Origin: an uncultured Coriobacteriaceae bacterium
GTDB lineage: Bacteria > Actinomycetota > Coriobacteriia > Coriobacteriales > Coriobacteriaceae
Assembly: GCA_944319885.1 (NCBI GenBank)
Contig: CALUFC010000011.1
Span: forward strand, 327 to 64,326
Length of the DNA: 64,000 nt
Direction: 5' to 3'
Position numbers and translations under genes: made by a program. Positions 6,121-60,651 of this stretch are shown here, in pieces. Positions within the stretch are counted from its first letter, which is position 1. Each line of letters begins with the position of its first letter. The notes under the pieces are model-generated. The model had not been told where the DNA came from. It ran no database searches and was given only the letters and a program-made list of their open reading frames with translations.

Positions 6121-6148
6121 TATGTCTAGCCAAATAGGGGAGAGAATT

Positions 6149-34640: not shown

Positions 34641-35468
34641 ATGGGTATGCTCGATGCCAACATGCTGCAGGCACTTACGTGGGCCGCGCTTGGCTGCGGC
34701 TTCACGTGGCTTATGACGACAGCGGGCTCGGCCGTGGTGCTTCTCACTCGTCCCGATGCACGGGGAGATGCGCTCGCCAACCGCATCTTTCTGGGCTTCG
34801 CGGCCGGCGTGATGGTTGCGGCGAGCGTGTGGTCGCTGCTCAACCCCGCGATCGAGCAGGCGGAGGAGCTGGGGCAGATTGGCTGGATTCCCGCAGCGGG
34901 TGGATTTCTGTTAGGCGTGGCGTTCCTGATTGCGCTCGATACGCTGCTGCCTCATCTGCATGCCGACGCTCAAGATCCCGAGGGCATGCCCAGCAGCTGG
35001 AAGCGAACGACGCTGCTTGTCTCGGCGGTGACGCTCCACAACATTCCCGAGGGCATGAGCGTGGGGCTCCTTTTTGCGATGGCCTCGCAGACGCCGGGGG
35101 CGGCGGGCGAGTCGTATCTTGGGATGGCGTTTGCGCTCGCGCTCGGCATCGGGCTTCAGAACGCTCCCGAGGGCGCGGCGGTCTCGTTGCCGCTGCGACG
35201 CGAGGGATTCAGCCGTGCCAAGGCCTTCGCGGTGGGAAGCCTTTCGGGCATCGTCGAGCCCATTTTTGGCATCTTGGTGGTGCTCGTGAGCGGATGGATC
35301 GCTCCCTACATGCCATGGCTGCTCTCGTTTGCCGCGGGCGCGATGGTCTACGTGGTGGTCGAGGAGCTCATTCCCGAGGCTCATCTAGGTGAACATTCCA
35401 ATGTGGGCACGCTCGGCGTTATCGCGGGCTTCGTGGTGATGATGGTGCTCGATGTCGCGCTCGGATAG
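34641..35468 (+). CDS. ZIP-family divalent metal transporter (ZupT-like)
   Basis: TM-rich sequence with the HNIPEG and LQNAPEG signatures of ZIP transporters. The start choice is uncertain (34575 or 34641). Confidence 0.8.
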   Translation: MGMLDANMLQALTWAALGCGFTWLMTTAGSAVVLLTRPDARGDALANRIFLGFAAGVMVAASVWSLLNPAIEQAEELGQIGWIPAAGGFLLGVAFLIALDTLLPHLHADAQDPEGMPSSWKRTTLLVSAVTLHNIPEGMSVGLLFAMASQTPGAAGESYLGMAFALALGIGLQNAPEGAAVSLPLRREGFSRAKAFAVGSLSGIVEPIFGILVVLVSGWIAPYMPWLLSFAAGAMVYVVVEELIPEAHLGEHSNVGTLGVIAGFVVMMVLDVALG

Positions 35469-35508
35469 GTGCGATGGGCGTTGCGCTGCGGTGATGGGGG
35501 TATGCACG

Positions 35509-36591
35509 ATGCGGGGCGATTTCTTGAGCAGGCTGCCGCTCGCCCAGAGCGCCGTTGATTATGACGTGGAGCGGCGCAGTGAGGAGGGACTCATCGACCG
35601 GCTGCTCGATGATCCGGTGACGCGCGTCATGCTCGTGCACGAGGGCCTTGTGGCGGTTTCCAAGCAAGCGGCTGGTCGTGTGCCGGTGGCGCTCGATTGC
35701 GTTGCCGATCCGGCTGCCCCGCGCCCTGACGCCGAGCCGCCAGCAGAAACGATGACGCTTGCCTTGCTGGCAGCGCGCGATCTTCGCGATGCGGCGCGCT
35801 GTCGTGGATGCCTTTTCATCTATCTGGGCATCGACCGGGCGTGCGCGCCGGCGGTGCCGTATCTTGCGCTCGACATCACGCGGGCGCTCGATGCGCAGCT
35901 ACAGGGCGGGATGGGTGCCGATAGCGAGCTCGACGCGCAACAGCCGCCGCTCTTCCAGCGTCTGCTTGCGGCGTATGAATGGGTCGAGCTTCGCTCGTTC
36001 GCGCCATGCGCCTCGGTGCGTGATGCCGGACTTGCTACGAGCGCGGTTGCGGTGAGTATGTGGCACCACAGCCAGCGGTACTGCCCTGCATGCGGCTCGC
36101 CGGTGCGCCCCGCGCTTGCTGGATGGGCGCAGACCTGCACCAACCCCGAAGATGCGGATCGCCTGCTGTTTCCGCGAATTGAGCCGGCGGTCATTACCTC
36201 GATTATCGATGGACGCGAGCGCATCGTGCTGCAGCACAACACGGCGTGGCGCGACCGCTTTTACTCGGTTTCGGCGGGATTTGTCGAGGCGGGGGAGAGC
36301 TTGGAGCACGCCGTGCGACGAGAGGCGATGGAGGAGGTGGGAATCCCGCTTGGCGAGGTGCACTATCTGGGCTCGCAAGCGTGGCCGTTTCCCTCGTCGG
36401 TCATGCTGGGATTTACCGCGCGCGCAGTGAGCGACGAGATTCGCGTTGACCATGAGGAGGTTGCTGCTGCTCGATGGTTCAGCCGCGATGAGCTGGCCCG
36501 AGCGGTCGAAACCGGCGAGGTCATGCTGCCGGGTCGCGCGTCGATCGCGCGACATCTCATCGAGCATTGGTATGGCGGTCCGTTGGGTTGA
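35509..36591 (+). CDS. nudC: NAD(H) pyrophosphatase NudC-like Nudix hydrolase
   Basis: Zinc-ribbon Cys motif CPACGSP...C followed by a Nudix box (GFVEAGESLEHAVRREAMEEVG). The start is uncertain. Confidence 0.78.
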   Translation: MRGDFLSRLPLAQSAVDYDVERRSEEGLIDRLLDDPVTRVMLVHEGLVAVSKQAAGRVPVALDCVADPAAPRPDAEPPAETMTLALLAARDLRDAARCRGCLFIYLGIDRACAPAVPYLALDITRALDAQLQGGMGADSELDAQQPPLFQRLLAAYEWVELRSFAPCASVRDAGLATSAVAVSMWHHSQRYCPACGSPVRPALAGWAQTCTNPEDADRLLFPRIEPAVITSIIDGRERIVLQHNTAWRDRFYSVSAGFVEAGESLEHAVRREAMEEVGIPLGEVHYLGSQAWPFPSSVMLGFTARAVSDEIRVDHEEVAAARWFSRDELARAVETGEVMLPGRASIARHLIEHWYGGPLG

Positions 36592-36718
36592 GGTGGCTCA
36601 GGTTGTTGCACGCGCGACGGTTTGCCGGGCATGTGGGGCGCCCGCTCCGCGATGTCGGACATGCGGATTCGGCTGCGGCGGCTGCGGTAAGGTGCGACCA
36701 GGCTGCGAGGGAATACAA

Positions 36719-37009
36719 CTAGCGGCGCATGTAGAGCAGCGGGTAGGGACGGCCTTCCTCGTCGAGGTCCGTGCGCCGGTAGGTTGAGAACCCCATGTGT
36801 TCGTAGAAGCCCACGGCACCCGGATTCTGCTCGTTCACCGTGAGCTCGGTTACGCCGAGGTGTTCGATGCCGTAGGTGAGGACTATCTCCGCTTCTGTGA
36901 GAAACGCATGCGTAGCGCGTACGGAACGCTTCCATACAGAGACGAGGCATTCCGCAAGTTGTGGCGTACGGGCATCTGCCGATACGAGCTTTATCGTCTC
37001 ATCTGCCAT
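36719..37009 (-). pseudogene. YjaB-like GNAT acetyltransferase with an in-frame internal deletion of the acetyl-CoA-binding core
   Basis: 97 aa. The N-terminal part (VWKRSVRATHAFLTEAEI) joins directly to the C-terminal part (TVNEQNPGAVGFYEHMGF...GRPYPLLYM). About 50 aa, including the R/QxxGxG/A loop, are missing compared with E. coli YjaB as I recall it. Confidence 0.55.
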
Positions 37010-37361
37010 GGGGGGCCACCCCTTATCGGTCTCGTGGATGCTCGTCGATGTGGTCGCGAAGCATGGACGAGACACCATCATGGATCATGCGCTCTTAGCG
37101 TATCGTGTGCTCGGCGAATCTCCCGCTTGCTGGGGTGTTCAATCAGTAGGTTAGCACCGGGGCGGCACTCGATGGTGGCTGTGCACGATGAAGCCTGCGA
37201 TGCCGAGATAGCGCGCTTCTGGCGTCAGCTCTGCATGCTGGAGCTGCGCATATAGAGCACCTGAGCGGCAAAGAGGCCCAGGAGCTCGTGTAGGCACGTG
37301 GGTAAAGCGGTTTGATGTAAACGCATGCGGGTGGTGCCACGGCGCGCTCGCGCGCTACCTA

Positions 37362-38291
37362 TTATGCGGGGACCAGCTGCCCGATGGCGCTTGCCGCGTC
37401 CGCATCGATGAGGATGGAGCGTTCGGCGATCTGCGTGGGCGCGAATGCCTCACCGGGATTCATGCACGCGTAGGTGGCACGTGGGTTTTCTGCCGTCATG
37501 CGCCAGAACGGAAACTTGATGATGACCGGGGTGTTGCCGCCCACGCCGATTTCCAGATAGAGCACACGGTCGCCCCCGTGCCGAGCAAGGAAGTTTTGAC
37601 AGCGCGCTGCGGCGGCATGCCAGCCCTCGTCCTCCACGAAGGTGTCGTCCGAGCGCAGGTTCATGGCCATGGGCTTGCTGCAGACGGGGCAATGGGGGAT
37701 GAGCGATGAGGGGATGAAGCGCGCGGGCGCGCGGCCATCCGCAGGCTCCCGCAGGGTGCCGTCCGCGTCGATGCGCCACCCTTGCGCCTCGACCATCTGG
37801 CGCACGACTGCGAAATTGTCGTAGGTTGTGGCATGACAGGGCTCGCTGCACTGCCAGAGGCCGTAGTCTCCTTGGGTGTAGAAGAGGCGCTGTCTGTCGA
37901 AGCCGGCGCGCTGGAAGCAGTGGTCCACGTTGGTGGTGAGGACGAAGTAGTCTTTGCGTACCACGAGTGCGTGCAGCTGCTCATACAGGTCGCTCGGTAC
38001 CGGCGCGTACCGGTTGATCCAGATGTAGCGGCTCCAGTACGCCCAACGCTCCTCTTCAGAGGAGAAGGGGAAAAACCCGCCAGCGTACATGTTGGTAAAA
38101 CCGTGGCGTGCAGCGAAGTCGCCGAAGTAGCGCCGGAAGCGCTCGCCGGCGTAGGTGAGGCCCGCCGCGGTGGAGAGTCCCGCGCCCGCGCCGATGACCA
38201 TCGCGTCGCACGAGGTGAGCGCGTGCTCAAGACGTGCGAGCTCGGTTGAGGAGTTCCTGGTAGACGCACTCGTCACGGTCAGAGAAGACAT
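37362..38291 (-). CDS. SIR2-family protein resembling macrodomain-linked class-M sirtuins (SirTM, ADP-ribosyltransferase type)
   Basis: GAGAGLS NAD-binding motif, TTNVDH, YTQGDY, and a Cys4 zinc ribbon (CSEPC...CPVC). It overlaps the upstream macro gene by 65 nt. An alternative GTG start is at 38276. Confidence 0.72.
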   Translation of the reverse strand: MSSLTVTSASTRNSSTELARLEHALTSCDAMVIGAGAGLSTAAGLTYAGERFRRYFGDFAARHGFTNMYAGGFFPFSSEEERWAYWSRYIWINRYAPVPSDLYEQLHALVVRKDYFVLTTNVDHCFQRAGFDRQRLFYTQGDYGLWQCSEPCHATTYDNFAVVRQMVEAQGWRIDADGTLREPADGRAPARFIPSSLIPHCPVCSKPMAMNLRSDDTFVEDEGWHAAAARCQNFLARHGGDRVLYLEIGVGGNTPVIIKFPFWRMTAENPRATYACMNPGEAFAPTQIAERSILIDADAASAIGQLVPA

Positions 38292-39051
38292 CGAAGACCA
38301 CCTTCAGTTGGGAATCGGTGCGGGTGAGGTGCGCGCGGACGGTGTCCACGGCGATGCGGGCGGCCTCTTCTTGCGGGAAGCCGAAGAGCCCGGTGGAGAT
38401 GCAGCAGAACACGAGCGTGCCCAGGCCGCGGCGCGTTGCTTCGGTAAGGCACGAGCGGTAGCAGCTGGCGAGCAGCTTGCGGTCGCGCGGGATCGCCGTG
38501 CCGTCACGCACGATGGGCCCCACGGTATGGAAGACGTAGCGGGCGGGCAGATTGAACGCGGGTGTAACCTTGACCTGGCCCGTTGGTTCCTCGTTCCCCT
38601 GTGCGCGCATGAGCTCGGCGCACGCGAGACGGAGCTCAATGCCGGCGTAGGTGTGGATTGCGTTGTCGATGCAGTGGTGCCCGGGGACGAAGCAGCCGAG
38701 CATCTGGCTGTTCGCGGCGTTCACGATGGCATCCGCTGCGAGGAGCGTGATGTCGCCGCGCCAGAGTGCGATGCGTGAGCCTGCGGGGTCTGCCGCGTCC
38801 GCGGGTTCAAGGTGCGCGGCGTCGACGGCGCCGCCTCGCTCGACGAGGCGCTCTGCGAGGTAGGCGTCCTGCGCGGCGAGCACCTCGTGCGTCACGGGCG
38901 CGGGCGGCCGAACATTCATGAGCGCGCGCAGGAGGGCGCGTTGGCCCTCGGCATCTTCCGGTGTCACGATCTTTCCGCCGTCTGCGCGTTCGGCAAGCAG
39001 CGCATCAATGAGATATCGCCTGCGGTCGTCCTGGGTCATCGCGTCTTCCAT
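38227..39051 (-). CDS. Macrodomain protein-ADP-ribose hydrolase with N-terminal helical extension
   Basis: Macro motifs GDITLLAADAIVNAAN, GCIDNAIH-like HHCIDNAIHTYAG and CCISTGLFGFP. About 270 aa, as in SirTM-associated macro proteins. An alternative ATG is at 39039. Confidence 0.85.
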   Translation of the reverse strand: MEDAMTQDDRRRYLIDALLAERADGGKIVTPEDAEGQRALLRALMNVRPPAPVTHEVLAAQDAYLAERLVERGGAVDAAHLEPADAADPAGSRIALWRGDITLLAADAIVNAANSQMLGCFVPGHHCIDNAIHTYAGIELRLACAELMRAQGNEEPTGQVKVTPAFNLPARYVFHTVGPIVRDGTAIPRDRKLLASCYRSCLTEATRRGLGTLVFCCISTGLFGFPQEEAARIAVDTVRAHLTRTDSQLKVVFDVFSDRDECVYQELLNRARTS

Positions 39052-39075
39052 TCACCGTAGTCGATCGGGCTTTTC

Positions 39076-40008
39076 TTACAGGAGCGTGGGCTGCAGGCGG
39101 CGGAGCGGCTTCTGCGCACCCTGGGTCATCGTGTCCTCGGGGCGCAGGTGGTCCAAAAGCAAGGGCGACTCAGGGTCGTGCTGCGTGCGGTAGTTCTCGA
39201 GCGCGCGTTCGGGATCCTTGTTAGCGTAGCAGTAGCGGCAGCCGTTTGGGCAGGAGTCATACGCGCCGATGTCGCGGCTCTCGATGCAGCCGCAGCCGGC
39301 GCGCTGACCCTTGTGCTTGCGCGGCGCGAAGGAGATGCCGTTGGCGGCGCCCAGGATGTCGAGCGTGGTGCAGCCGCTCGGGTGGATGCCGTAGGCGCTC
39401 CAGTCGCCATTGGAGCCGCAGGTCTGGAGCCAGATTCCGTGCTCGGCGGCGATGGTGCCCATGCCGCGGGCGAGCCGGTCCATGTCTTCGGGGCCGATGG
39501 GGGAGAGCTCGGGCATATTGAACCGCAGCTTCTTGTAGAGCTCCACGAAGGAGAAGATGCAGCGGTCAACATGGCCGGCCAGGCGGCCGCACAGATGGTC
39601 GAACGTTGCCAGGTGGCGCTCCACCGTGTAGGTGGGCGTGAGCAGCACCGGGTCATAGCGCCAGGCGATGCGCCGCGCACCCACGATTCTCTCGAGATCA
39701 TAAAGGGTTTCTACGGAGTCCTCGACGTTGGGGACGCGCGGTTCGATGTCCTGCCCGTAGGCGGTGATGGTGTAGTTGAAATAGGTGTTGAAGCGGTTCG
39801 TGATCTCGTGCAGGCGCGGCAGGATGGGCGCATAGTTCTTGGAGCAGAAGATCACGACGTCAACTACGTCCGGCGTGAGCTCGTAGCGCGTCACCTTGGT
39901 GGGGAAGAGCGGGTTTCTTGCCAGCGCGAACCCTTCTTCGAAGCGCCTGAGCAGCCAGGGCGTGTACCACTGCACGGTGTCTGTGCGTGCGCCGGTGTTG
40001 ATGATCAT
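39076..40008 (-). CDS. DUF1848-family protein (Cys-rich, radical-SAM/photolyase-like fold suspected)
   Basis: 310 aa. The ATG at 40008 follows ggggagg. The N-terminus MIINTGARTDTVQWYTPWL and the C-terminal Cys cluster CGCIESRDIGAYDSCPNGCRYCYA match my recollection of DUF1848. Confidence 0.75.
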   Translation of the reverse strand: MIINTGARTDTVQWYTPWLLRRFEEGFALARNPLFPTKVTRYELTPDVVDVVIFCSKNYAPILPRLHEITNRFNTYFNYTITAYGQDIEPRVPNVEDSVETLYDLERIVGARRIAWRYDPVLLTPTYTVERHLATFDHLCGRLAGHVDRCIFSFVELYKKLRFNMPELSPIGPEDMDRLARGMGTIAAEHGIWLQTCGSNGDWSAYGIHPSGCTTLDILGAANGISFAPRKHKGQRAGCGCIESRDIGAYDSCPNGCRYCYANKDPERALENYRTQHDPESPLLLDHLRPEDTMTQGAQKPLRRLQPTLL

Positions 40009-40024
40009 ACCGCCTCCCCATATA

Positions 40025-40038
40025 CGAACAAACGTTCT
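40025..40038. promoter_or_regulatory. Candidate LexA SOS (Cheo) box CGAACAAACGTTCT
   Basis: It matches GAAC-N4-GTTC, and 13 of 14 positions of the Gram-positive consensus CGAACRNRYGTTYC. It lies between AT-rich TATA-like hexamers, 17-30 nt upstream of the DUF1848 start. Confidence 0.45.
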
Positions 40039-40135
40039 TATATATCATAGCGCGAGGGCCGTGCCGCTTCAAACGAAGGGGCGGAGCTTCACGCCTCACC
40101 CCCCTCGGCTCAATCTGCGGCATCTTCTGCTTTGG

Positions 40136-40441
40136 CTACTTGCTTACCACCGAGACGCGCTCGCACACGTGCTCGCCGCTCTCGATGAGGTCAACGATCG
40201 CGATAGCGTAGTCGGCATAGCTCACGGTGGACTCACCGGCTGCATTCAGGGTGAGCTCCTCGCCGGCGAGCGTGTTCTCCGCGGTGAGGTCGAGCGCGTC
40301 CTTCACGAGCGCGTTTTGCGCCTCGGTCTTGTTCTCTTCGCGCACGATGGCGGTGACGTCGAGGCCACGCTCGACGGCCTCCTTCACGACGAGCTGTCCC
40401 ACGCGACCGTTCGCGGCGACGACGGCGATCTTCTTAGCCAT
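40136..40441 (-). pseudogene. NAD(P)H-binding (NmrA/atypical SDR) protein with a large in-frame internal deletion
   Basis: 101 aa. The Rossmann start KIAVVAANGRVGQLVVKEAVERGLDVTAIVR joins to a C-terminal tail STVSYADYAIAIVDLIESGEH..RVSVV. Typical family members are about 210 aa. Confidence 0.5.
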
Positions 40442-40556
40442 GATGGCTCCTATCTGCCCGCGGGCTTTCACGTGTCCGCAGGCGTAGCGTTGTTTGTTCC
40501 GGCGTTCTCTCTGCCGGCATCGTTATCGTCGCGCCTGGCCCTCACATGAGAAAGTA

Positions 40557-40570
40557 AGCACAATTTTGTG
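40557..40570. promoter_or_regulatory. Palindrome GCACAA-tt-TTGTGC in the divergent SDR / HxlR intergenic region
   Basis: 6-bp perfect arms flanked by repeated GTAAG words. Candidate HxlR operator. Confidence 0.35.
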
Positions 40571-40693
40571 CGGTAAGTACCTGTGGGTAAGTAATGGTTT
40601 ATACCTGCTCGAATAATTGTGTGCATACTGTGGCAGGCACGGGCAGCGGTATGCTGTTCCCGATGGAACGACAGAAGAGGAAGGTGAATCGCT

Positions 40694-41047
40694 GTGCTGG
40701 AGAACCGTCAGGCGTCCCCGGATGCGGAGCGCGAGTGGCCGGCGTGCCCGGTCGAGACCACGCTCGCGCTCATCGGTGACAAGTGGAAGCCGCTCATCCT
40801 GCGCGACCTGCTCGAAGGCACAAAGCGTTTCGGCGAGCTGCAACGCAGCGTCGGCCATGTGTCGCAGAAGGTGCTCACAGGCCAGCTGCGCGCCATGGAG
40901 GCGGACGGTCTGGTGCATCGTGAGGTCTATGCCGAGGTGCCGCCTCGCGTAGAGCACTCGCTCACGCCGCTTGGACAGAGCCTCAAGCCTGTTATCGATG
41001 CGCTCAAGACCTGGGGCGAGCATTTCAAGGCGGGCCAGGCACAATAA
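40694..41047 (+). CDS. HxlR-family winged-helix transcriptional regulator
   Basis: GTG start after ggaaggtg. Motifs CPVETTLALIGDKWKPLILRDL and RFGELQRS..ISQKVLTxQLRxME-like. Confidence 0.85.
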   Translation: MLENRQASPDAEREWPACPVETTLALIGDKWKPLILRDLLEGTKRFGELQRSVGHVSQKVLTGQLRAMEADGLVHREVYAEVPPRVEHSLTPLGQSLKPVIDALKTWGEHFKAGQAQ

Positions 41048-41153
41048 GCGTGGGGTATACGGTCCGTAGGTAGCATGAAGCTCGCATGCTCGGCATACTA
41101 TAGCAGGCAACCGAAAGACAGCGTTGTGTACGCGCTTCGACCGAAGGAGTTCT

Positions 41154-41765
41154 ATGGCCGCCTACATTACCGCCGAGACCATTAAGATTCTGCGCGATGA
41201 ACGGGGCCTCACGCAACGCGCCCTTGCTGAGGCGATAGGTGTAACGGACAAGGCGATCTCCAAATGGGAATCGGGACGCGGGCTTCCCGACATATCGCTT
41301 GTTGAACCGCTTGCGTCGGCGCTGGGCGTCTCGGTTGCCGAGCTTCTCACCGGCGACGTGCGTCAGAATGCCAATCGGGCGGGAAATCCTTTGCGTGCGA
41401 AGTTTTACGTGTGCCCCATCTGCGGCAACGTGGTCTATGCCCTCGGCGATGGCGCGTTTTCGTGTTGCGGCGTGCGCTTGCTGCCCCTAGAGGTGGAGCA
41501 ATCCGACGAGAACCACGGTATCGCCATCGAGCGCGTAGAGGATGAGTGGCACATCACGCTCGACCATTCCATGACGAAAGACCACTTCATAACGTTCATC
41601 GCCTATGTTGCTCCGGATGGCGTCACAATCAAGAAGCTCTATCCCGAGCAGGAACCGGAAACGCGCTTCCGGATGGGGATGTCGGGTGCCATCTATGCTT
41701 GCTGCAACCGGCACGGCCTTTTCCGCGTGCCCACACCAAAACGTTCGCTGAGCGCACGTCTCTAA
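41154..41765 (+). CDS. XRE-HTH domain fused to a complete desulfoferrodoxin-type superoxide reductase (HTH-Dx-SOR)
   Basis: The ATG at 41154 follows gaaggag. HTH region LTQRALAEAIGVTDKAISKWESG. Centre I Cys CPICG...SCCG. Centre II ligands are all present (ENHGI, LDHSMTKDH, CCNRHG). Confidence 0.75.
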   Translation: MAAYITAETIKILRDERGLTQRALAEAIGVTDKAISKWESGRGLPDISLVEPLASALGVSVAELLTGDVRQNANRAGNPLRAKFYVCPICGNVVYALGDGAFSCCGVRLLPLEVEQSDENHGIAIERVEDEWHITLDHSMTKDHFITFIAYVAPDGVTIKKLYPEQEPETRFRMGMSGAIYACCNRHGLFRVPTPKRSLSARL

Positions 41766-53758: not shown

Positions 53759-54145
53759 CTACCTCACGAAGAGGCCTCCGTTGATTACCCCGTAGGCCAC
53801 CACCAGGGCGAAGAGCGCCAGGACGACGCAGCCGACGACGAGGAACGCCCGCCAGGCCCTGAGCGCAGCCTCCTTGCCCCGCTCGACGTCGGAGTAGATC
53901 GACGAGATCTGCTTCTCTGACTCGTTGAGGGCGCGCACGTCGCCCACGTCGACGCCCCTCACGAGCTCGTCGAGGCTCATCTCGTAGTAGTCCGACAGCA
54001 GGACGAGCCTCTGGAAGTCGGGGTAGGACTGCCCGAGCTCCCACTTCGACACCGTCTGCCTCGAGACGCCGAGCTCGTAGCCGAGCTGCTCCTGCGAGAG
54101 CCCCTTCTTCCTCCTGAGGTCGGCGAGCCGTTCGTTGAAGTTCAT
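53759..54145 (-). CDS. Membrane-anchored XRE-HTH protein (128 aa)
   Basis: The ATG at 54145 follows gaaagga. HTH region LSQEQLGYELGVSRQTVSKWELGQSYPD, with one C-terminal TM helix. Confidence 0.75.
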   Translation of the reverse strand: MNFNERLADLRRKKGLSQEQLGYELGVSRQTVSKWELGQSYPDFQRLVLLSDYYEMSLDELVRGVDVGDVRALNESEKQISSIYSDVERGKEAALRAWRAFLVVGCVVLALFALVVAYGVINGGLFVR

Positions 54146-54281
54146 GGTCGTTCCTTTCGGTCGGTTCTGCAGTCCGCACCGCGTGGGTGCAAGACCATGG
54201 AACCGCGCCGCGGGCCCTGGCGCCACCAACGACGGTTGGCGATCCGTCAACCAAAGGCGGCATTGGGCGAGGTTGCGGCGG

Positions 54282-54668
54282 CTAGGGTGCGGACACAGGG
54301 CGCCCGGTCTCGATGAACGCGATCAGCTCCTCGAGGTCGTCGAAGTCGTCGTAGTCGCCCATGATGCCCTCGCGGTGGTAGACGACCCCCGCGGCCTCGT
54401 TCCGCTCGAGGCAGTCCAGGAGGCGCCCCTCGCCGAACCTGCGCGCGAACTCGCCGAAGGCGCGCGCCTTGAGCTGGGCGCCCGCCATGGCGTCGCAGCC
54501 GCTCAGGCACTCGTAGCAGTGGGCGAGCCCCCGCCCCGTCGAGCACGACCTCACCTCGCAGGTGGCGGCGTCCGGGCAGGACTCGGACTCGCAGCCGTCG
54601 CACCCGTCGTTCTCCGAGCACAGGCAGCAGGCGAGCCCGCACCGCGCGATCCCCAGCTCTCTCCTCAT
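54282..54668 (-). CDS. DUF3795-like Cys-rich protein
   Basis: The ATG at 54668 follows aaggggg. Cys-rich N-terminus CGLACCLCSENDGCDGCESESC...CEVRSC...CYEC. Confidence 0.6.
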   Translation of the reverse strand: MRRELGIARCGLACCLCSENDGCDGCESESCPDAATCEVRSCSTGRGLAHCYECLSGCDAMAGAQLKARAFGEFARRFGEGRLLDCLERNEAAGVVYHREGIMGDYDDFDDLEELIAFIETGRPVSAP

Positions 54669-54738
54669 GAGGACCCCCTTGTTAACGAACGTATGTTCCT
54701 GTACCATGATGCTACCACAAGCGAGGACGGAGGCCACG

Positions 54739-55449
54739 ATGGCGTACGACTTCAAGAGGGAGTTCCGCGACCTGTACCAGCCCAAGATGGCCCCGGCGCT
54801 CGTCGACGTTCCGGCGATGACCTTCGCCGCCGTCGCCGGCGCGGGGGACCCCAACGTGGAGGGGGGCGCCTACAAGCGCGCGCTCGGGCTCCTGTACGCC
54901 TTCTCCTACACGGCCAAGATGTCGAAGATGGGAGACTGGCAGCCCGAGGGCTACTTCGACTACGTGGTGCCGCCGCTCGAGGGCCTGTGGTGGGGCGGAG
55001 AGGGCGCGTTCGACGGGACGGGCGTCGACGACAAGGCGGCCCTCTCGTGGGTGTCGCTCATCCGCCAGCCCGACTTCGTGACGCCCGGGACCCTCCCCGC
55101 GATTCGCGAGATGGCTGCCGAGAAGAAGCCCGACCTGGCAGACGCCCTCGAGTCGGGCGAGCTCCGCCTCGTGCGGTTCTCGGAAGGGCGCTGCGCGCAG
55201 TCCATGCACAAGGGGCCCTACGACGAGGAGGGTGCCACGATCTCGAAGCTCGCCGCCTTCGTCGGTGCGCAGGGCCTTCGCCTCGACATCGGCGAGGCGG
55301 GGGGCTCGCGCCCGAGCGACGTCCTCGGCGCGCTCGACTGCGACGGCGGCGTCCCCTCCGTCCGCCTCCACCACGAGATCTACCTGGGCGACCCCAGGCG
55401 CACGAAGCCCGAGAGCCTCAGGACCGTCATCCGGCACCCGGTCGCTTAG
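54739..55449 (+). CDS. GyrI-like small-molecule-binding domain protein
   Basis: The ATG at 54739 follows gacggagg. The N-terminus YDFKREFRDLYQPK and the motifs RQPDFVT, SMHKGPYD and HEIYLGDPRRT are typical of this family. Confidence 0.72.
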   Translation: MAYDFKREFRDLYQPKMAPALVDVPAMTFAAVAGAGDPNVEGGAYKRALGLLYAFSYTAKMSKMGDWQPEGYFDYVVPPLEGLWWGGEGAFDGTGVDDKAALSWVSLIRQPDFVTPGTLPAIREMAAEKKPDLADALESGELRLVRFSEGRCAQSMHKGPYDEEGATISKLAAFVGAQGLRLDIGEAGGSRPSDVLGALDCDGGVPSVRLHHEIYLGDPRRTKPESLRTVIRHPVA

Positions 55450-55457
55450 GGACGACC

Positions 55458-55841
55458 ATGGACCTCTCGCGCATAGACGCCCGCCTGCTCTCGCGCCCCG
55501 GCGCAACCAAGGCCCTCCACGAGAAGTGGGGCTGGATGGTGTACTGGGTGGGCGGCAGGCAGTTCGCCTGCGAGTTCGTCGCTTCTCCCGACGCCAGGCC
55601 GCCCTACGCGGGGCGCCATCTGCTCTCGCTCAAGTGCGACTCCGACCGCATCCTGGAGCTGCGCGCGGAGCATCCGGGCGCGGTTCTTCCCGGCTACTAC
55701 TCCGACGGGCGCACGTGGGTCTCCGTCGACCTGGACGCCAACCTTCCCGAGGGGCTCGTGCTCGACCTGTGCGACATGAGCTACGACCTCGTCTTCTCCA
55801 AGCTGCCCAAGCGAGTCCAGCGGGAGCTCGCGGGCGCGTAG
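55458..55841 (+). CDS. MmcQ/YjbR-family DNA-binding protein
   Basis: 127 aa. The motifs FACE..SLKCD and YYSDGRTWVSVDLD resemble YjbR-family sequences. Confidence 0.7.
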   Translation: MDLSRIDARLLSRPGATKALHEKWGWMVYWVGGRQFACEFVASPDARPPYAGRHLLSLKCDSDRILELRAEHPGAVLPGYYSDGRTWVSVDLDANLPEGLVLDLCDMSYDLVFSKLPKRVQRELAGA

Positions 55842-55843
55842 CG

Positions 55844-56344
55844 TTACCCCGCGAGCGCGCGCAGCGAGTCGGCTGCCGCTCGCGACGTGATGTGGAGCCT
55901 GAGGCCGATGGGGCTCACCTCGAGCTCCACGACGGGCGATCCCTCGTAGGTGGTGACCTCGAGCACCTTGACCTCGTCGAGGTCGTCGGCGCTCTGCCCG
56001 AGCTTCTGCGTCTCCGGCTGCCACAGCTCGAAGGCGTACTCCGCGTCGGCGTCCGGCTCCGCGGCCAGGCCGTTCTCGTCGGAGAGCGGGTCGAAGGCGC
56101 CCTCGATCTGGTCCTGGTCGGTCAGCTCGCGCACGACCTCGCCGGTCTGGGCGTCCCTCACGACGAGGCGGGAGACCTTGCCCCAATCGACGTTCGAGAG
56201 CGTGTCGGCGAGCTCCTGCGCCTGCGAGGCGAAGTCCTCCGCCTGGTCGGCGACGTCGTCGAGGCCGGGCAGGCCGAAGCATCCCGCGAGGGGCAGCGAA
56301 ATAGTGGCGGCGAGCAGGGCGGCGATGGCGGTGCGTGCTCTCAT
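55844..56344 (-). CDS. Acidic secreted lipoprotein, unknown function
   Basis: The ATG at 56344 follows gagaggag. Signal peptide with lipobox LPLAGC. Confidence 0.6.
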   Translation of the reverse strand: MRARTAIAALLAATISLPLAGCFGLPGLDDVADQAEDFASQAQELADTLSNVDWGKVSRLVVRDAQTGEVVRELTDQDQIEGAFDPLSDENGLAAEPDADAEYAFELWQPETQKLGQSADDLDEVKVLEVTTYEGSPVVELEVSPIGLRLHITSRAAADSLRALAG

Positions 56345-56426
56345 TGGTCTCCTCTCGATTCGGCTCCCGCCCATTCTACCCCGGGGCCTCCCGGGCGGGT
56401 GGGGACTCCTTCCGCCCGGGAGGTCC

Positions 56427-57152
56427 CTACCTCGCGGCCTCCCGGCGCCTCACGGCGGCGTAGGCTGCCGCGCCGGCGCCGACGAGGGCGACGGTGGCGA
56501 CGAGCGTGGCCCCGGCGGCGACCCAGTCGCCCTGCGAGGCGAACCCCGCGGCGAGCGTCGAGGTCACGACCGAGGGGACGCGCCCGACCGTGGCGATGGC
56601 CGCGATGCGCCACCAGCGGCAGTCGGTGAGCCCTGCGACGTAGGTGAGGACGTCCTTGGGGGTGCCGGGGATGAGGAACACGACGAGCATCAGGAGCTCG
56701 AAGCGCGCGGAGTCGCGCAGCCACGAGACGCCCTCCAGCTGCTCGGCCGAGAAGAACGCGCGCACGGCGCGCATGCCGAGCGCCCTCACGAGGGCCGTCA
56801 CGGCGAGCGTGCCCACCAGCCCGCCCGCCAGGCACACGGCCGTGCCCTCCCAGAAGCCGAAGAGGTAGCCCGCCGCGAGCTCGACCGGCTCGCCGGGGAG
56901 CACCGCGACGACGATCTGGGCGACGACGAGCGCCCCCATGGCCGCGGGCGCGAGCGGCCCCTGGGCGTCAACCCAGGCGCGCACCGCGTCCCCGTCCGTG
57001 AAGAACGCCCACAGGCCGGGCCCCCAGTAGAGCGCCGCCGCGACCAGCAGGGCCGCCGCCGCGACCAGCAGGGCCGCCGCCGCGACGCAGCCCTCCGCCT
57101 CGAGCGCCCTTCCGCCCGTCCCGCGCTCCCCTTCCGTTTCCTCGCCCGCCAT
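56427..57152 (-). CDS. TVP38/TMEM64 (DedA-related) family membrane protein
   Basis: The ATG at 57152 follows caggagg. The motifs LPGEPVELAAGYLFG and IPGTPKDVLTYVAGLT are typical of the family. Confidence 0.75.
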   Translation of the reverse strand: MAGEETEGERGTGGRALEAEGCVAAAALLVAAAALLVAAALYWGPGLWAFFTDGDAVRAWVDAQGPLAPAAMGALVVAQIVVAVLPGEPVELAAGYLFGFWEGTAVCLAGGLVGTLAVTALVRALGMRAVRAFFSAEQLEGVSWLRDSARFELLMLVVFLIPGTPKDVLTYVAGLTDCRWWRIAAIATVGRVPSVVTSTLAAGFASQGDWVAAGATLVATVALVGAGAAAYAAVRRREAAR

Positions 57153-57430
57153 GTCCGCGCCCTCCTGTCGGTCTTTCCGTCCTGGTGCCATTATGACTGG
57201 GGGGGGGTTCCGGGCAACCGTCGGCCCTCGTCGGTAACGGCCCCCGCGGGATCTCTCTCGCGAGGGCCGTCTTGTCCGGTCGGGACTCGTGGGGATTGTC
57301 TTTTGGGTCCCTGCCGGATCGACTGGGTCGCCCCCCAGATAAATCGAGCTCTCCGCTGCATGACAAGATGGACGCACCCTAGGCTCGCTGGCGGCCAGGC
57401 CCTCAAGAGCCCTCAAAAGGGCGCATGTCG

Positions 57431-57523
57431 TCAGTCCCTGTCTCGCCAGCGCCGGATGAGGTAGTTGCGCACCGGCACTGCCACGATAATCAATCCGATT
57501 ACGAAGAGCACCGTGAGGTCCAT
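57431..57523 (-). CDS. Possible 30-aa single-TM micro-protein (MDLTVLFVIGLIIVAVPVRNYLIRRWRDRD)
   Basis: Found by hand; it is below the ORF-track length cut-off. The ATG lies 8 nt downstream of the ABC-2 permease stop. There is no counterpart in cassette A. Confidence 0.25.
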   Translation of the reverse strand: MDLTVLFVIGLIIVAVPVRNYLIRRWRDRD

Positions 57524-57530
57524 CCCGCCC

Positions 57531-58256
57531 CTAGAACTCGCGCGTCTTGTAGAGCTTGAGGGAGAGTGCGGCAGAGAGAGCGAGAGAGCCGGCCGAGAGC
57601 GCGAGCAGCCCGATGAGGCACCCCGCCGCGCCCGCAGGTGACCAGACGAGGCTCAGGGCTCCTGCGAGGCCCTCGGCCGTGAGCGTGCTCTCGTCGATCA
57701 TGCCGCTCCCGCCCGCAACGATGATGGGGCAGAGAAGCACGAAGAGGGGCACGAGCGGCAGGTACTGCGTCGTCCTCGTGTTGCCAAAGCGGAAGAAGAG
57801 CGGGACCTCCACGGCCGCGCAGAGCGACCCGACGGCAAAGAGCGCTCCCGCGGAGAGGCACATGCCTAGCAGGGCGTCCCCGGAGAGCGCCAGGGCGGAC
57901 GAGAGCTCTCCCGGCAGCGGGATGAAGAGCGCGACCGCCCCGAGGGCGACCGCCGCCGCCAATCCGAGGGCCAGTCCGCCGAGCCCGAGTGTCGCGATGG
58001 CGCCGTAGCGGGCGAGCACCACGTCACGACGGGAAAGCGGCATCGTGAGACGAAGGCGCTCCCAGCCATTCAGGTCATCGAAGGAGTTTGTCCCGGACAC
58101 GCCGAGCAGGAGGTACATCATCGCAAGGAGGCCTGGTGCCATCACGGAGGTCTGCATGCCCAGGCTCACGCACACGGCGACAAAGAGCCCGAGGCCGAGG
58201 AGCGCCCGCGCGTAGTCGCGAAGGACGGTCATGTCAACGAGGTAGGCGCGCAGCAT
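57531..58256 (-). CDS. ABC-2 type transporter permease (cassette B, second copy)
   Basis: 241 aa. Paralog of 45060..45785 (MLRAYLVDMTVLRDYARAL vs MKRAYLVEMTIIRDYVRQL). Confidence 0.75.
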   Translation of the reverse strand: MLRAYLVDMTVLRDYARALLGLGLFVAVCVSLGMQTSVMAPGLLAMMYLLLGVSGTNSFDDLNGWERLRLTMPLSRRDVVLARYGAIATLGLGGLALGLAAAVALGAVALFIPLPGELSSALALSGDALLGMCLSAGALFAVGSLCAAVEVPLFFRFGNTRTTQYLPLVPLFVLLCPIIVAGGSGMIDESTLTAEGLAGALSLVWSPAGAAGCLIGLLALSAGSLALSAALSLKLYKTREF

Positions 58257-58328
58257 CTTCGTGTTCCAATCCCTTGGTGGGGCGCCGCGGGAGGGGGCGT
58301 CGCGGCGCCCGGTTTTCCGCTCTTCTCG

Positions 58329-59054
58329 CTAGAGCTCGCGGGTCTCGTAGAGGCGCAGGGAGAGCGCGGCGGAGACGGCTAGGATGACGGCGGAGGCCGC
58401 CACCATGACCGCGCACCCAACGGCCAGGCCCTCGGGTGTCTCGATGTAGGCGAGCAGGGACGCGATCTGTTCGAGGCCCGGCAGCGCCCCGTCGAGAAGG
58501 CCGCTGTTGCCGAGAAAGACCACCGGCAGCACGAAGAGCAAGACGATGATCGTGGGGAGGAGCTGCGTGGCCTTGGTCTGGCCGAGGCGGAAGTAGATCG
58601 GCGTCACGACGGAGGCCACGGTGGCGCCGATGAGCAGGCAGAACGTCGTGGCGAAAGCCATCGCGGAGAGCGTGCCGGCGTCAAGGGCGAGGGCCTGGGA
58701 GAGCTCGCCGGGGAGCTCCACCGCGGAGGCCACGGCGCTGATCGCGAACGCGGCGAGCAGGCCGACCGCCATGCCGCCCAGGCCCAGCGTCACAATGGCG
58801 CCGTAGCGGCCGAGCACCACGTCCCGGCGGGAGAGCGGCAGCGTCAGGCGGAAGCGGCCCCAGTCGTTCTGCTCGTCGTAGGCGGCCGCGCCCATCGCGC
58901 CCATCATGAAGAACATGCAGGTGATGATCGAGGGGGCGGCGAGGACGGTCTGCATCCCGCAGCCCACGAGCACCGCCACGAGGAAGCCGAGGGCCAATAG
59001 CTGCCTGCCGTAGTCGCGGAAGATGGTGAGCTCGATGAGGTATGCGCGCTTCAT
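58329..59054 (-). CDS. ABC-2 type transporter permease (cassette B, first copy)
   Basis: Inner ATG at 59054 (MKRAYLIELTIFRDYGRQL), with a TAATG overlap with the ATPase stop. Confidence 0.75.
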   Translation of the reverse strand: MKRAYLIELTIFRDYGRQLLALGFLVAVLVGCGMQTVLAAPSIITCMFFMMGAMGAAAYDEQNDWGRFRLTLPLSRRDVVLGRYGAIVTLGLGGMAVGLLAAFAISAVASAVELPGELSQALALDAGTLSAMAFATTFCLLIGATVASVVTPIYFRLGQTKATQLLPTIIVLLFVLPVVFLGNSGLLDGALPGLEQIASLLAYIETPEGLAVGCAVMVAASAVILAVSAALSLRLYETREL

Positions 59055-59956: not shown

Positions 59957-59993
59957 GATATTCACGTCCCTTCTTGCGCGCCCGTCGCGGGCG

Positions 59994-60362: not shown

Positions 60363-60483
60363 GTTCCGATCCTTCCTGCTCGCCCCTCGGGCGTCCCCTC
60401 GGGGGGTTGCCGCCGCGGGGCGTCCCCCTCGGCGGCGCGGGGCGGCGGCGGACGTCTTCGCGCCTCCCCGTCGGGTATATACC

Positions 60484-60531
60484 GTATATACCCGATAGCT
60501 ACAGTATATACTCACCTATACACAGTGCAAG
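60484..60531 (-). promoter_or_regulatory. Second copy of the identical 48-nt promoter/operator block
   Basis: The same 48-mer as 47262-47309. Confidence 0.55.
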
Positions 60532-60651
60532 GGAAATTACCGACTTTTTCGAATCGCGGCCCCGGGACGGCCCTCAGCTGGGAAGCTAACCGTAAGCTAA
60601 CGCCCGCGCGGTATGGTTCCCGCGGGGTCGGACGAGAGAGGGGTGGCGGCC

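Follow-up and report, generated by a model that had tools for sequence, protein, structure and literature searches.

A probable mosaic operon in an Olsenella species places a LexA-box DUF1848 cassette ahead of an HxlR-associated Zn-Macro/SirTM pair

The DUF1848, macrodomain and sirtuin genes described here probably form a species-specific mosaic operon put together from two originally separate stress modules, a reading to which we assign a probability of roughly 0.6. The operon is contained in a 64,000-nucleotide stretch (the window) of contig CALUFC010000011.1 from an uncultured Coriobacteriaceae bacterium and is probably under dual control by HxlR and LexA, with the binding of both regulators predicted. 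The initial annotation had proposed a candidate module of the three genes, possibly wired to the SOS response. An evolved module of this kind was not supported: the box and the promoter are those of DUF1848, and the locus shows marks of recent rearrangement. At the sequence level, these marks are a cassette that has changed its position while staying 90% identical and an ancestral NmrA-like gene shortened by an in-frame deletion.

All three genes are encoded on the minus strand, with DUF1848 at 39076-40008 (310 aa ORF), the macrodomain gene (Macro, of the Zn-Macro type) at 38227-39051 (274 aa ORF) and the sirtuin gene (SirTM) at 37362-38291 (309 aa ORF). The ORF coordinates confirm the tight packing described initially, namely a gap of 24 nt between DUF1848 and Macro (39052-39075) and an overlap of 65 nt between Macro and the sirtuin. 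With the second ATG (39039) as the start of Macro, the point at which homology to its relatives sets in, the gap widens to 36 nt. For L007, a contig of the same species, one gene caller picked a 279-aa sirtuin form without overlap. The long sirtuin start has an AAGGTGG ribosome-binding site 6 nt upstream and is supported by an invariant M1 and a conserved N-terminus among 18 homologues as well as by Macro/SirTM overlaps of 28-61 nt in 69 other loci.

Profile matches, structure-chain matches and individual residues upheld the family assignments of all three proteins. For the sirtuin, the Pfam search gave no match; it aligns with SpySirTM (5A3A, E 3.5e-65) and with none of the canonical sirtuin chains of the PDB at E<=1. 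Its catalytic site contains Q140-G141 instead of HG together with N121 and R213, residues whose catalytic roles are described in PMC4518038, and the zinc cysteines are present at positions 148, 152, 201 and 204. By these features it belongs to class M (SirTM), and we predict it to be an NAD+-dependent protein mono-ADP-ribosyltransferase acting as the writer of the pair. Macro matches PF01661, the protein-ADP-ribose hydrolase model NF003163 (333 bits against a cutoff of 272) and structure 5KIV (E 2e-73, alignment starting at residue 5). It carries the motifs NAAN at 111, Cx4HxC (CFVPGHHC) at 120 and Dx3H (DNAIH) at 129, as defined for Zn-Macro proteins in PMC11490716, and is a predicted protein-ADP-ribose hydrolase of the zinc-dependent eraser type. 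Both ORFs are intact and keep every catalytic and zinc-binding residue.

The closest known system is the reversible ADP-ribosylation pair SirTM/Zn-Macro, described by Rack et al. 2015 (PMC4518038) and Ariza et al. 2024 (PMC11490716), with SpySirTM 5A3A and SauMacro 5KIV/8RSL as structures. The window shares with it the QG in place of HG, the catalytic Asn and Arg and the Cys4 zinc site of the sirtuin, the NAAN motif, Cx4HxC zinc loop, Dx3H motif and N-terminal extension of Macro, and a gene order in which Macro comes first and overlaps SirTM. In contrast to the known operons, it lacks GcvH-L, LplA2, OYE and LLM and adds a divergent HxlR gene, a deleted NmrA-like gene and DUF1848 with a LexA operator. 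The absence of GcvH-L and LplA2 had been noted before and was borne out, as tblastn for GcvH returned only hits with E>=7.5 and no GCV_H or LplA family member was present among the genes called within about 6 kb on either side of DUF1848. The 'minimal' or lone SirTM/Zn-Macro operons (MorMacro; Enterococcus faecalis, Treponema pedis; PMC11490716) are likewise without lipoylation genes, and the passages of that paper on lone pairs state their targets as unknown. When compared to these operons, the pair in the window and most pairs of its gut relatives are not truly alone but are accompanied by HxlR and a small redox protein encoded upstream, a context unmentioned in the operon and gene-context passages of PMC4518038 and PMC11490716.

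The HxlR-family regulator (40694..41047, plus strand; PF01638, E 3.8e-33) is divergent from the operon, and its closest NCBIfam similarity, below cutoff, is to the redox transcription factor RrpB. A divergent HxlR gene is found upstream of Macro-SirTM in L001-L006 and in the Olsenella loci L014 and L015, and among 80 SirTM metagenome loci 39 contain one. The SirTM relatives closest to the window, at 78% and 69% identity, have HxlR divergent to NmrA (212 aa)-Macro-SirTM, and these loci contain neither DUF1848 nor a GAAC-N4-GTTC box. The HxlR/NmrA intergenic core (40540..40610, minus strand) contains the near-palindromes GTTACC-N4-GGTAC and GCAC-N6-GTGC, and about 45 nt of it are almost invariant among the window, L001, L003, L014 and L015 while the flanks diverge. 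This core is the probable ancestral promoter and operator, here termed P1, and HxlR is predicted to be the conserved regulator of an ancestral NmrA-like-Zn-Macro-SirTM operon. The NmrA-like (NAD_binding_10) gene itself is reduced to a remnant (40136..40471, minus strand) of 101-111 aa versus 212 aa in the relatives, with a Pfam match limited to profile positions 2-61 of 184. According to blastn and blastp, residues ~1-59 of the full-length L001 protein are joined directly to ~164-212, with about 333 nt missing in frame from the interior of the gene at a short microhomology. Neither the divergent HxlR gene nor the NmrA remnant, the two elements by which the conserved operon is defined, had been noticed in the initial annotation. 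Among 59 SirTM loci, the gene directly upstream of Zn-Macro encodes a PNPOx-ferredoxin protein in 36 and DUF1848 in one; in Coriobacteriia, an NmrA-like protein accompanies the pair upstream.

A single sigma-70-like site was found in the interval 36600-41200, and it precedes DUF1848. This promoter, P2 (40044..40072, minus strand), is composed of a -35 hexamer TTGAAG, a 17-nt spacer and a -10 hexamer TATGAT and is located inside a segment whose counterpart upstream of DUF1848 in L015 shares 90% identity. The LexA-type SOS box GAACGTTTGTTC (40026..40037, minus strand, given in operon orientation) is a perfect palindrome that follows the -10 hexamer after 6 nt and is separated from the DUF1848 start codon by another 17 nt, and it matches the actinobacterial LexA consensus tCGAAC-N4-GNNCGa of Streptomyces venezuelae (PMC9380542). 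A count over the window alone gives no significance (2 matches versus 0.78 expected; 21 of 100 shuffles give >=2), the second match preceding a GyrI-like gene. The significance of the box comes instead from its conservation upstream of DUF1848 orthologues. Equivalent boxes precede DUF1848 in L009-L013, and the 18 Coriobacteriia loci compared have 7 perfect boxes and 4 with one mismatch upstream of the gene; over the 181 kb of these loci, 7 of the 11 perfect boxes lie <=200 nt upstream of DUF1848, when about 0.2 would be expected. At least four distinct genomic settings in Coriobacteriia, among them lone and SRAP-linked genes, have the box directly before DUF1848. It is absent from SirTM loci without DUF1848 and from all 23 loci in which DUF1848 sits behind MarR (Firmicutes, Spirochaetes and others). 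Judged by this distribution, the box and P2 belong to DUF1848 alone, and the box noticed at the outset stands as a conserved regulatory element of DUF1848 orthologues to which LexA is predicted to bind. As in the Gram-positive and actinobacterial LexA (SOS) regulon with its Cheo-type GAAC-N4-GTTC boxes, the palindrome is perfect, occupies the -10/+1 region and is conserved before orthologues. Further likenesses are the SRAP (SOS response-associated peptidase family) genes that adjoin DUF1848 in L009, L010 and L016 and the radical SAM protein among the LexA targets of S. venezuelae (PMC9380542, Table 1). Our literature search found no publication naming DUF1848 as an SOS gene. On the coding strand, nothing resembling a terminator was detected from P2 to the SirTM stop codon. 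A weak hairpin between the NmrA remnant and P2, which could cut the downstream genes off from P1, is not significant (z-score -0.87).

DUF1848 (PF08902, E 1.6e-91) is rich in cysteines, with a C-terminal radical-SAM-type motif C253-x3-C257-x-Y-C260 and additional residues C197, C213, C239 and C241, and these cysteines are invariant among 52 diverse homologues. Members of the family often end in a QLSLF clamp-binding-like motif. The closest resemblance is to the SPL/SplB-like DNA-repair enzymes of the radical SAM type and to TIGR04470, the family of 'radical SAM mobile pair protein B', as the DUF1848 signature Y-x-x-C-x-H-G-C-x-Y-C-Y-A-N nearly equals NPYVGCTHGCKYCYAS of the neighbouring protein and an 18-aa stretch aligns with that family (hhalign 92.8%). 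Unlike in SPL/SplB-like radical SAM enzymes, the motif is C-terminal (residues 247-264) and not N-terminal. The Radical_SAM model of Pfam does not match DUF1848, profile similarity does not extend beyond the motif even after circular permutation, and a search for a solved structural relative gave none. In other phyla the gene occurs in MarR-DUF1848-radical SAM-Fpg-EndoIII-like operons; among 80 DUF1848 loci, MarR is present in 24, TIGR04470 in 21, Fpg in 19 and EndoIII-like genes in 10. DUF1848 and the TIGR04470 protein are often adjacent in one operon, and their distribution across phyla is sporadic and mobile-looking. DUF1848 is a probable Fe-S enzyme of the radical-SAM type with a predicted role in DNA repair.

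The loci of Olsenella uli (L014) and Olsenella sp. An290 (L015) show the order DUF1848-> <-HxlR NmrA->Macro->SirTM, in which DUF1848 lies outside the operon and is convergent with HxlR. Between the window and these two loci, identity amounts to 90% for the DUF1848 cassette together with the region upstream of it, but to only 74-75% for Macro-SirTM. A GNAT-like ORF of the window (36719..37081, minus strand; weak PF13673 match) is a marker of the rearrangement. Over the 164 nt at its 3' end it shares homology with the stretch that immediately precedes the DUF1848 cassette in O. uli, and in blastn window positions 36882-36719 match L014 4757-4920 (83%) and L015 3376-3539 (85%). The NudC-type NAD+ diphosphatase gene (35452..36591, plus strand; NF001299, 221 bits versus a cutoff of 158) is convergent at 771 nt from the sirtuin stop, in agreement with the 0.8 kb reported initially. 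A relation to the module, which the initial annotation had left undecided, found no support, as such proximity is not seen in the relatives examined: no NUDIX gene is present in the SirTM neighbourhoods of L001 and L003-L006, and blastn of the NudC region detected no homology in L014 or L015. It probably lies outside the module.

We considered whether the three genes could instead be a genuine functional module with DUF1848 as client, that is substrate or partner, of SirTM/Zn-Macro, a possibility that we regard as rather unlikely. In Staphylococcus, the slot immediately upstream of Zn-Macro is occupied by GcvH-L. According to the client reading, the gene in this slot encodes a protein regulated by the pair, be it GcvH-L (Staphylococcus, Streptococcus), a PNPOx-ferredoxin or NmrA-like protein (gut anaerobes) or DUF1848 here, where the NmrA-like gene would have been inactivated and DUF1848 put in its place. 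The slot proteins are mostly cofactor-bearing redox proteins, and the unknown targets of lone pairs noted in the passages of PMC11490716 leave room for such clients. DUF1848 operons elsewhere encode oxidised-base repair enzymes (Fpg, EndoIII-like), and therefore both modules could answer oxidative stress. DUF1848 lies directly upstream of Zn-Macro also in L179 and L180, without SirTM, and in the Ruminococcus-like contig L166, where DUF1848-Macro-SirTM (DUF1848 40% identical, 12-nt gap, 56-nt overlap) arose independently. It is near a Zn-Macro/SirTM pair in 5 of 80 DUF1848 loci (L014, L015, L021, L027, L067), against about 0.25 expected by our own estimate, which assumes a flank of ~8 kb per 2.5-Mb genome and one pair in every genome. 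Such proximity is rare but above chance and, together with L166, L179 and L180, hints at selection for linkage. Since the upstream slot, the independent L166 arrangement and the above-chance proximity coincide, a substrate or partner relationship is conceivable; if the client swap were true, an oxygen-sensitive Fe-S repair enzyme would be under reversible ADP-ribosylation in DNA-damage or oxidative stress. The co-occurrence is thus seen as proximity, but the three-gene order itself proved rare: just one of the 59 SirTM loci has the genes adjacent on the same strand, and not one of the 80 DUF1848 loci at species level does. Outside L166, the complete order on one strand was seen only in L007 and L008, contigs of the window's own species. 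Moreover, sampling of six Ruminococcus relatives of the L166 DUF1848 gave five lone genes, both other Olsenella species hold the gene outside the operon, and the neighbouring pairs in L067 and L027 look decayed, since SirTM is split in the former and inverted relative to Macro in the latter. The equation of upstream slot with substrate is also extrapolated from a single characterised case.

Decay at the locus itself would make the juxtaposition neutral, with the NmrA-like partner destroyed, Macro-SirTM not meaningfully expressed from the LexA promoter and the pair heading for loss in this species. The internal deletion of the ancestral partner gene, the decayed pairs adjoining DUF1848 in L067 and L027 and the far greater divergence of Macro-SirTM than of DUF1848 from the other Olsenella copies are in line with this, but the intact catalytic and zinc-binding residues of both proteins, the recurrence of the arrangement with intact ORFs in two or more of the species' metagenome contigs (L007, L008) and a 24-36-nt gap too short for a terminator, with none detected, make it improbable. 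SIR2 domains are common in defence systems, and an anti-phage system in which DUF1848 served as effector alongside a NADase or transferase of the SIR2 family would fit the DUF1848 match to the PADLOC model RTasDUF1848 (E 4.9e-32). That model describes an accessory of DRT/UG25 reverse-transcriptase systems (PMC9226505), however, and no reverse transcriptase is nearby, SirTM and Zn-Macro have no PADLOC match, SirTM is a characterised protein-ADP-ribosylating class with a dedicated eraser, and the neighbourhoods are made up of regulators and of genes for redox functions or repair rather than being defence islands. We consider a defence function highly improbable.

The mosaic operon that we favour would have arisen as follows. 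Ancestral at the site would be an HxlR-regulated small redox-type protein (NmrA-like here) followed by Zn-Macro and SirTM, in which SirTM would mono-ADP-ribosylate a protein target with NAD+, Zn-Macro would take the modification off and the 65-nt overlap would couple their translation. The second module would be a single-gene cassette of DUF1848 with its own promoter and LexA operator, encoding most likely an SOS-induced radical-SAM-type Fe-S enzyme that works on damaged DNA. In the window's Olsenella species, this cassette would have shifted from just outside the module, beyond HxlR as in other Olsenella, into the NmrA/Macro junction, and the NmrA-like gene would additionally have lost its ~333 nt. 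Macro and SirTM would now be read through from the LexA-controlled P2 and probably still from the HxlR-controlled P1. Levels of the ADP-ribosylation pair would then go up not only upon DNA damage but also under electrophile or oxidant stress, and this co-control would be a recent by-product of the rearrangement rather than an evolved DUF1848-SirTM partnership.

The three minus-strand ORFs of the operon lie where the initial annotation had placed them, with a 24-nt gap between DUF1848 (39076–40008, 310 aa) and Macro (38227–39051, 274 aa) and a 65-nt overlap between Macro and the SirTM gene (37362–38291, 309 aa), to which Macro is immediately 5′. Its assignment of the three products to DUF1848, a macrodomain hydrolase and a class M-like sirtuin was likewise borne out. 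In phmmer searches of the PDB the sirtuin matched Streptococcus pyogenes SirTM (5A3A) with an E-value of 3.5e-65, and all matches at E ≤ 1 were SirTM-type chains, namely 5A3A and the fungal Macro-SirTM fusion 8RSN; no canonical sirtuin chain was retrieved at this threshold. The protein gave no Pfam SIR2 match, and the NCBIfam deacylase models scored only 17–19 bits against cutoffs of 243–305. According to passages of PMC4518038, class M is defined by a glutamine replacing the catalytic histidine of the HG motif, and ADP-ribosylation by SirTM requires the equivalents of Asn118 and Arg192. The window sirtuin has QG for HG, as its T-Q140-G141-D-Y-G pairs with I-Q-G-E-Y-G of the S. pyogenes protein, and it harbors N121 (TTNVD) and R213 (NLRSDD), both invariant across 18 homologues, as well as the zinc cysteines 148, 152, 201 and 204. 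Judged by these features, it appears closer to SirTMs than to sirtuins of classes I–IV and U. The long, overlapping SirTM start is favored because an AAGGTGG ribosome-binding site precedes it by 6 nt, M1 is invariant in homologues and Macro lies directly upstream of and overlaps SirTM in 69 of 80 related loci (overlaps of 28–61 nt). Two database 'SirTM' proteins of 463–510 aa (P0121 and P0123) were ruled out as fusions since they contain internal duplications of SirTM sequence, which are probably assembly or gene-calling artefacts.

The macrodomain protein matches Pfam Macro with an E-value of 3e-36 and the NCBIfam model NF003163 for protein-ADP-ribose hydrolases at 333 bits (cutoff 272). Its N-terminal three-helix-bundle extension is evident from the alignment with Staphylococcus aureus Zn-Macro (5KIV, E 2e-73), which runs from residue 5, from the full-length NF003163 match and from the Pfam domain, which begins only at residue 110. 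As described in part of PMC11490716, Zn-Macro proteins are characterized by a Cx4HxC zinc loop instead of the Gly-rich catalytic loop, by NAAN and by Dx3H; the window protein contains all of these zinc-type motifs, with NAAN at 111, CFVPGHHC at 120 and DNAIH at 129. The DUF1848 protein covers positions 1–262 of the 262 positions of PF08902 (E 1.6e-91). In the extended SirTM operon the pair is flanked by GcvH-L and LplA2, whereas the window pair lacks both, as had been noted initially: the gene table contains no GcvH-L, LplA2, OYE or LLM-type extended-operon gene within ~6 kb, and tblastn with an approximate E. coli GcvH query detected no GcvH in the window. PADLOC assigned DUF1848 to its model RTasDUF1848, reflecting one contextual mention in which UG25 reverse transcriptases are linked to certain DUF1848 proteins (PMC9226505). 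An anti-phage defence system was nevertheless rejected, since DUF1848 alone matched PADLOC, with no match for Macro or SirTM and no reverse transcriptase.

The three-gene picture of the initial annotation overlooked two further genes just upstream, a divergent HxlR-family regulator (40694–41047, Pfam) and an NmrA-like ORF (40136–40471, 111 aa). The latter is a remnant whose match to the NAD_binding_10/NmrA profile is limited to the first 60 positions and which aligns in two pieces, residues ~1–59 being joined to ~164–212 of the full-length protein by an in-frame deletion of ~333 nt at a short microhomology. The loci of the nearest SirTM homologues, P0125 (78% identity) and P0131 from Enorma (69%), contain HxlR divergent from an intact NmrA-like gene (212–214 aa), followed by Macro and SirTM, without DUF1848. 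A Ruminococcaceae relative has HxlR divergent from a peptide/radical-SAM gene, an ADH gene, Macro and SirTM. The HxlR/NmrA intergenic core is near-invariant in the window and four relatives, so the old promoter/operator appears to be intact; the window has thus kept HxlR and this core, but retains the redox gene of the slot before Macro only as a deleted remnant. The neighboring ORF beside HxlR (41124–41765) shows an unusual pairing, with an XRE-type HTH at the N-terminus and weak desulfoferrodoxin-like matches at the C-terminus.

A SirTM-centred scan of metagenome contigs yielded 80 loci, 39 of which carry a divergent HxlR gene, and 59 loci had enough sequence upstream of Macro to analyze the preceding gene. 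In 36 of these 59 (within L094–L173, e.g. L104 and L113) the slot directly before Macro is occupied by a protein of ~200 aa in which a PNPOx_N FMN-binding domain is fused to a 2x[4Fe-4S] ferredoxin. Divergent HxlR, PNPOx-ferredoxin protein, Zn-Macro and SirTM is the commonest order among the gut-metagenome SirTM loci. The passages on SirTM in PMC11490716 and PMC4518038 contain no mention of this PNPOx-ferredoxin/HxlR context. From its position, the PNPOx-ferredoxin protein is a candidate substrate or partner of SirTM. DUF1848 fills the slot in a single one of the 59 loci (L166).

The comparison of the position of the DUF1848 cassette in the window and in its Olsenella relatives, which is headed by REARRANGEMENT, indicates that the cassette has probably been relocated. 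The window derives from an Olsenella species, and its DUF1848 is 92–94% identical to the proteins of O. uli An820 and Olsenella sp. An290, in both of which DUF1848 faces HxlR convergently while NmrA, Macro and SirTM follow in the direction of DUF1848. This arrangement places DUF1848 outside the module in both genomes. In blastn comparisons, the DUF1848 cassette with its promoter region (window 40072–39077) is 90% identical to both relatives; Macro-SirTM of the window is only 74–75% identical to them and 78% to L001, a locus of a SirTM relative. A GNAT-like gene adjoins DUF1848 upstream in O. uli with its 3′ part, and this part is found in the window downstream of SirTM (36882–36719, blastn). 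The same-strand order DUF1848-Macro-SirTM occurs in none of the 80 species-level DUF1848 loci and was seen only in metagenome contigs of the window's own species (L007 and L008). A 19-nt direct repeat (39030–39048 and 39120–39138; GAAGACGCGATGACCCAGG and GAGGACACGATGACCCAGG on the coding strand, 17 of 19 positions identical) ties the 3′ end of DUF1848 to the start of Macro, and may be due to chance or have been left by the recombination event that brought both genes together. Apart from it, the search for repeats flanking a mobile cassette returned only short matches, which are probably due to chance.

The relocated cassette carries the sole sigma-70-like promoter between 36.6 and 41.2 kb (TTGAAG, 17 nt, TATGAT), located upstream of DUF1848, and the LexA-type box GAACGTTTGTTC (GAAC-N4-GTTC, 40026–40037) begins 6 nt after its −10 hexamer. 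Two perfect boxes were found in the window against 0.78 expected, a count that by itself is not significant. Placed over the promoter, the box at 40026–40037 fits the actinobacterial LexA consensus tCGAAC-N4-GNNCGa, the respective regulon of which takes in a radical SAM protein (PMC9380542). DUF1848 homologues with 75–77% identity are encoded either as lone genes or ahead of a gene of the SOS response-associated peptidase family (SRAP), and in both settings CGAAC-N4-GTTCG is located just past a −10-like hexamer, the remaining upstream sequence being unrelated. Among 18 Coriobacteriia loci (181 kb in total), 11 have a box before DUF1848, either perfect (7) or with one mismatch (4), and 7 of the 11 perfect boxes present lie ≤200 nt before this gene. 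No GAAC-N4-GTTC box was found in SirTM loci without DUF1848. On this pattern of conservation, the box belongs to DUF1848. The box to which the initial annotation had tentatively attached SOS control is therefore real and conserved before DUF1848 orthologues, but the data do not support an evolved three-gene module wired to SOS. SOS control is also not universal in the DUF1848 family, as the box is absent before all 23 MarR-led DUF1848 operons of other phyla.

The only other perfect box of the window (54687–54698) lies between divergent genes, flanked on the plus strand by a gene with a GyrI-like domain (start ~54739) and on the minus strand by a Cys-rich ORF without a Pfam match (start ~54668). 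In E. coli, sbmC/gyrI belongs to the SOS genes, and from its location this box is a possible second SOS target. Across the final 10 kb of the window (54001–64000), the G+C content climbs from ~0.60 to 0.68–0.78.

Our literature search turned up no functional study of DUF1848/PF08902, a family of ~3,800 representatives at 50% clustering, or of the 'radical SAM mobile pair' proteins. Seven cysteines are invariant in the family, three of which form a C-terminal C-x3-C-x-Y-C. The corresponding C253-PNG-C257-R-Y-C260 of the window protein is invariant in 52 homologues and conforms to the radical SAM motif CX3CX(aromatic)C. Using hhalign, an 18-residue stretch around it aligned with the N-terminal motif of TIGR04470, the radical SAM family encoded nearby, with a probability of 92.8%; similarity to radical SAM proteins beyond these 18 residues was not detected by hhalign, nor did DUF1848 match PF04055 (Radical_SAM) or an NCBIfam model. 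A circularly permuted SPL-type radical SAM enzyme was rejected, as permuted sequences gained no hhalign score beyond the 18-residue motif. The AlphaFold model (pLDDT 81) displays an alternating beta/alpha fold, for which Foldseek returned only weak TIM-barrel-like PDB neighbours (E ≥ 5.8e-3, TM ~0.3), so that no fold was assigned.

For the genomic context of the family we used a 15-sequence alignment for the locus scan, the 52-sequence alignment being too diverse. The 80 loci obtained encode DUF1848 proteins with 61–94% identity from Coriobacteriia, Clostridia, Spirochaetes, Gastranaerophilales, Alphaproteobacteria and one Methanomassiliicoccales archaeon, which indicates horizontal spread. 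Same-strand neighbours are MarR (24 loci), Fpg (19), an EndoIII-like HhH-GPD glycosylase (10) and a nitroreductase (7), and 21 of the 80 loci have a radical SAM neighbour classed as a TIGR04470 equivalog ('radical SAM mobile pair protein B'). These genes form a conserved operon in the order MarR, (nitroreductase), DUF1848, radical SAM TIGR04470, Fpg and EndoIII-like glycosylase, which recurs in Clostridia, Spirochaetes and a Methanomassiliicoccales MAG at 61–70% DUF1848 identity (L022–L060, L076, L086 and others). Its composition and distribution suggest a horizontally mobile DNA-repair cassette. The canonical beta-clamp-binding pentapeptide is of the QLSLF type. Among 115 diverse DUF1848 proteins (within P0241–P0390), 38 have a C-terminus that fits the strict pattern Q-[LIMVF]-x-[LIMF]-[FL] (e.g. 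QLSLF, QLNLF, QISLF) and 59 one that fits a looser clamp-like motif; the window protein ends in ...RRLQPTLL with the degenerate form QPTLL (39076–39100). Taken together, the cysteine motif, the repair-gene neighbours, the predicted LexA control in Coriobacteriia and the clamp-like tails indicate that DUF1848 is probably an Fe-S enzyme acting on damaged DNA, predicted to be of the radical SAM type.

Both operators could act on the window operon. P1 would be the HxlR-type operator, ancestral at this locus, through which electrophile or oxidant stress would act, and P2 would be a LexA operator that arrived together with DUF1848. When DNA damage leads to LexA cleavage, DUF1848 is predicted to be induced, and Zn-Macro and SirTM along with it by read-through. 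Read-through is expected because the coding strand from P2 to the SirTM stop contains no terminator-like site and the junctions measure 24–36 nt and −65 nt. A hairpin located between the NmrA remnant and P2 was discarded as a candidate intrinsic terminator (z-score −0.87, not called as a terminator). SirTM would then mono-ADP-ribosylate some protein, and Zn-Macro would remove the modification.

With a probability of roughly 0.6, we consider this operon a mosaic peculiar to one species, into which an SOS gene was relocated, and not an evolved damage-inducible ADP-ribosylation module. The gene identities and the conserved box on which the module of the initial annotation was built hold true, but an evolved three-gene SOS module is not supported, as the same-strand order was absent from the 80 species-level DUF1848 loci and the cassette has probably been relocated. 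A different and rather unlikely explanation is that SirTM and Zn-Macro are modular regulators with a client encoded directly upstream of Zn-Macro, the window representing a client swap to DUF1848. Known or candidate occupants of this slot comprise GcvH-L, the PNPOx-ferredoxin protein, NmrA-like proteins and, rarely, DUF1848. The swap would gain from L166, a low-GC Ruminococcus-like contig in which DUF1848 is followed after a 12-nt gap by Zn-Macro and, with a 56-nt overlap, by SirTM. Its DUF1848 is 40% identical to that of the window and ends in QLTLF. L166 represents an independent origin of the operon. In the related lineage L179/L180, DUF1848 precedes Zn-Macro without SirTM (4942–6774), and in five other sampled relatives of the L166 lineage DUF1848 is alone in unrelated contexts. 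Facing the L179/L180 Zn-Macro from the other strand is a second macrodomain protein, which has 341 aa and is distinct from it, and nitroreductase and FMN-reductase genes are close by.

Macro/SirTM lies within 5 kb of DUF1848 in five of the 80 DUF1848 loci (L014, L015, L021, L027 and L067) against ~0.25 cases expected by chance, our own estimate that assumes ~8 kb of flanking sequence in a 2.5-Mb genome and one pair in every genome. The link is hence rare but above chance. The pair of L021 is at the locus edge, SirTM of L027 (1–1700) is inverted relative to Macro, and the pair of L067 (Gemmiger, 449–1315) is divergent with SirTM split into two ORFs. Those of L027 and L067 look damaged, although the split in L067 could stem from an error in MAG assembly. 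A response to oxidative stress is plausible for both modules, because Fpg and EndoIII-like glycosylases repair oxidised bases and HxlR as well as flavin and Fe-S proteins accompany SirTM. Such a shared role could explain their proximity by shared islands or shared selection. DUF1848 may still be an occasional client of the SirTM/Zn-Macro pair. If true, the swap would place a clamp-associated, SOS-induced Fe-S repair enzyme under reversible ADP-ribosylation and link bacterial DNA-damage signalling to protein ADP-ribosylation.

Under the mosaic reading, gene rearrangement in one Olsenella species has probably placed a SirTM pair under the control of the SOS response. To our knowledge, GcvH-L is the sole known SirTM substrate. 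The targets and roles of the remaining SirTM/Zn-Macro systems are stated to be unknown in part of PMC11490716. Of wider interest are the HxlR/PNPOx-ferredoxin setting in which most gut SirTM pairs occur and the predicted role of DUF1848 in DNA repair. In gut anaerobes, the products of the genes that immediately precede Zn-Macro become concrete candidate targets of SirTM, with HxlR as the likely regulator, and DUF1848, a family with thousands of members, receives its first coherent functional prediction as a radical-SAM-type Fe-S enzyme of DNA-damage repair.
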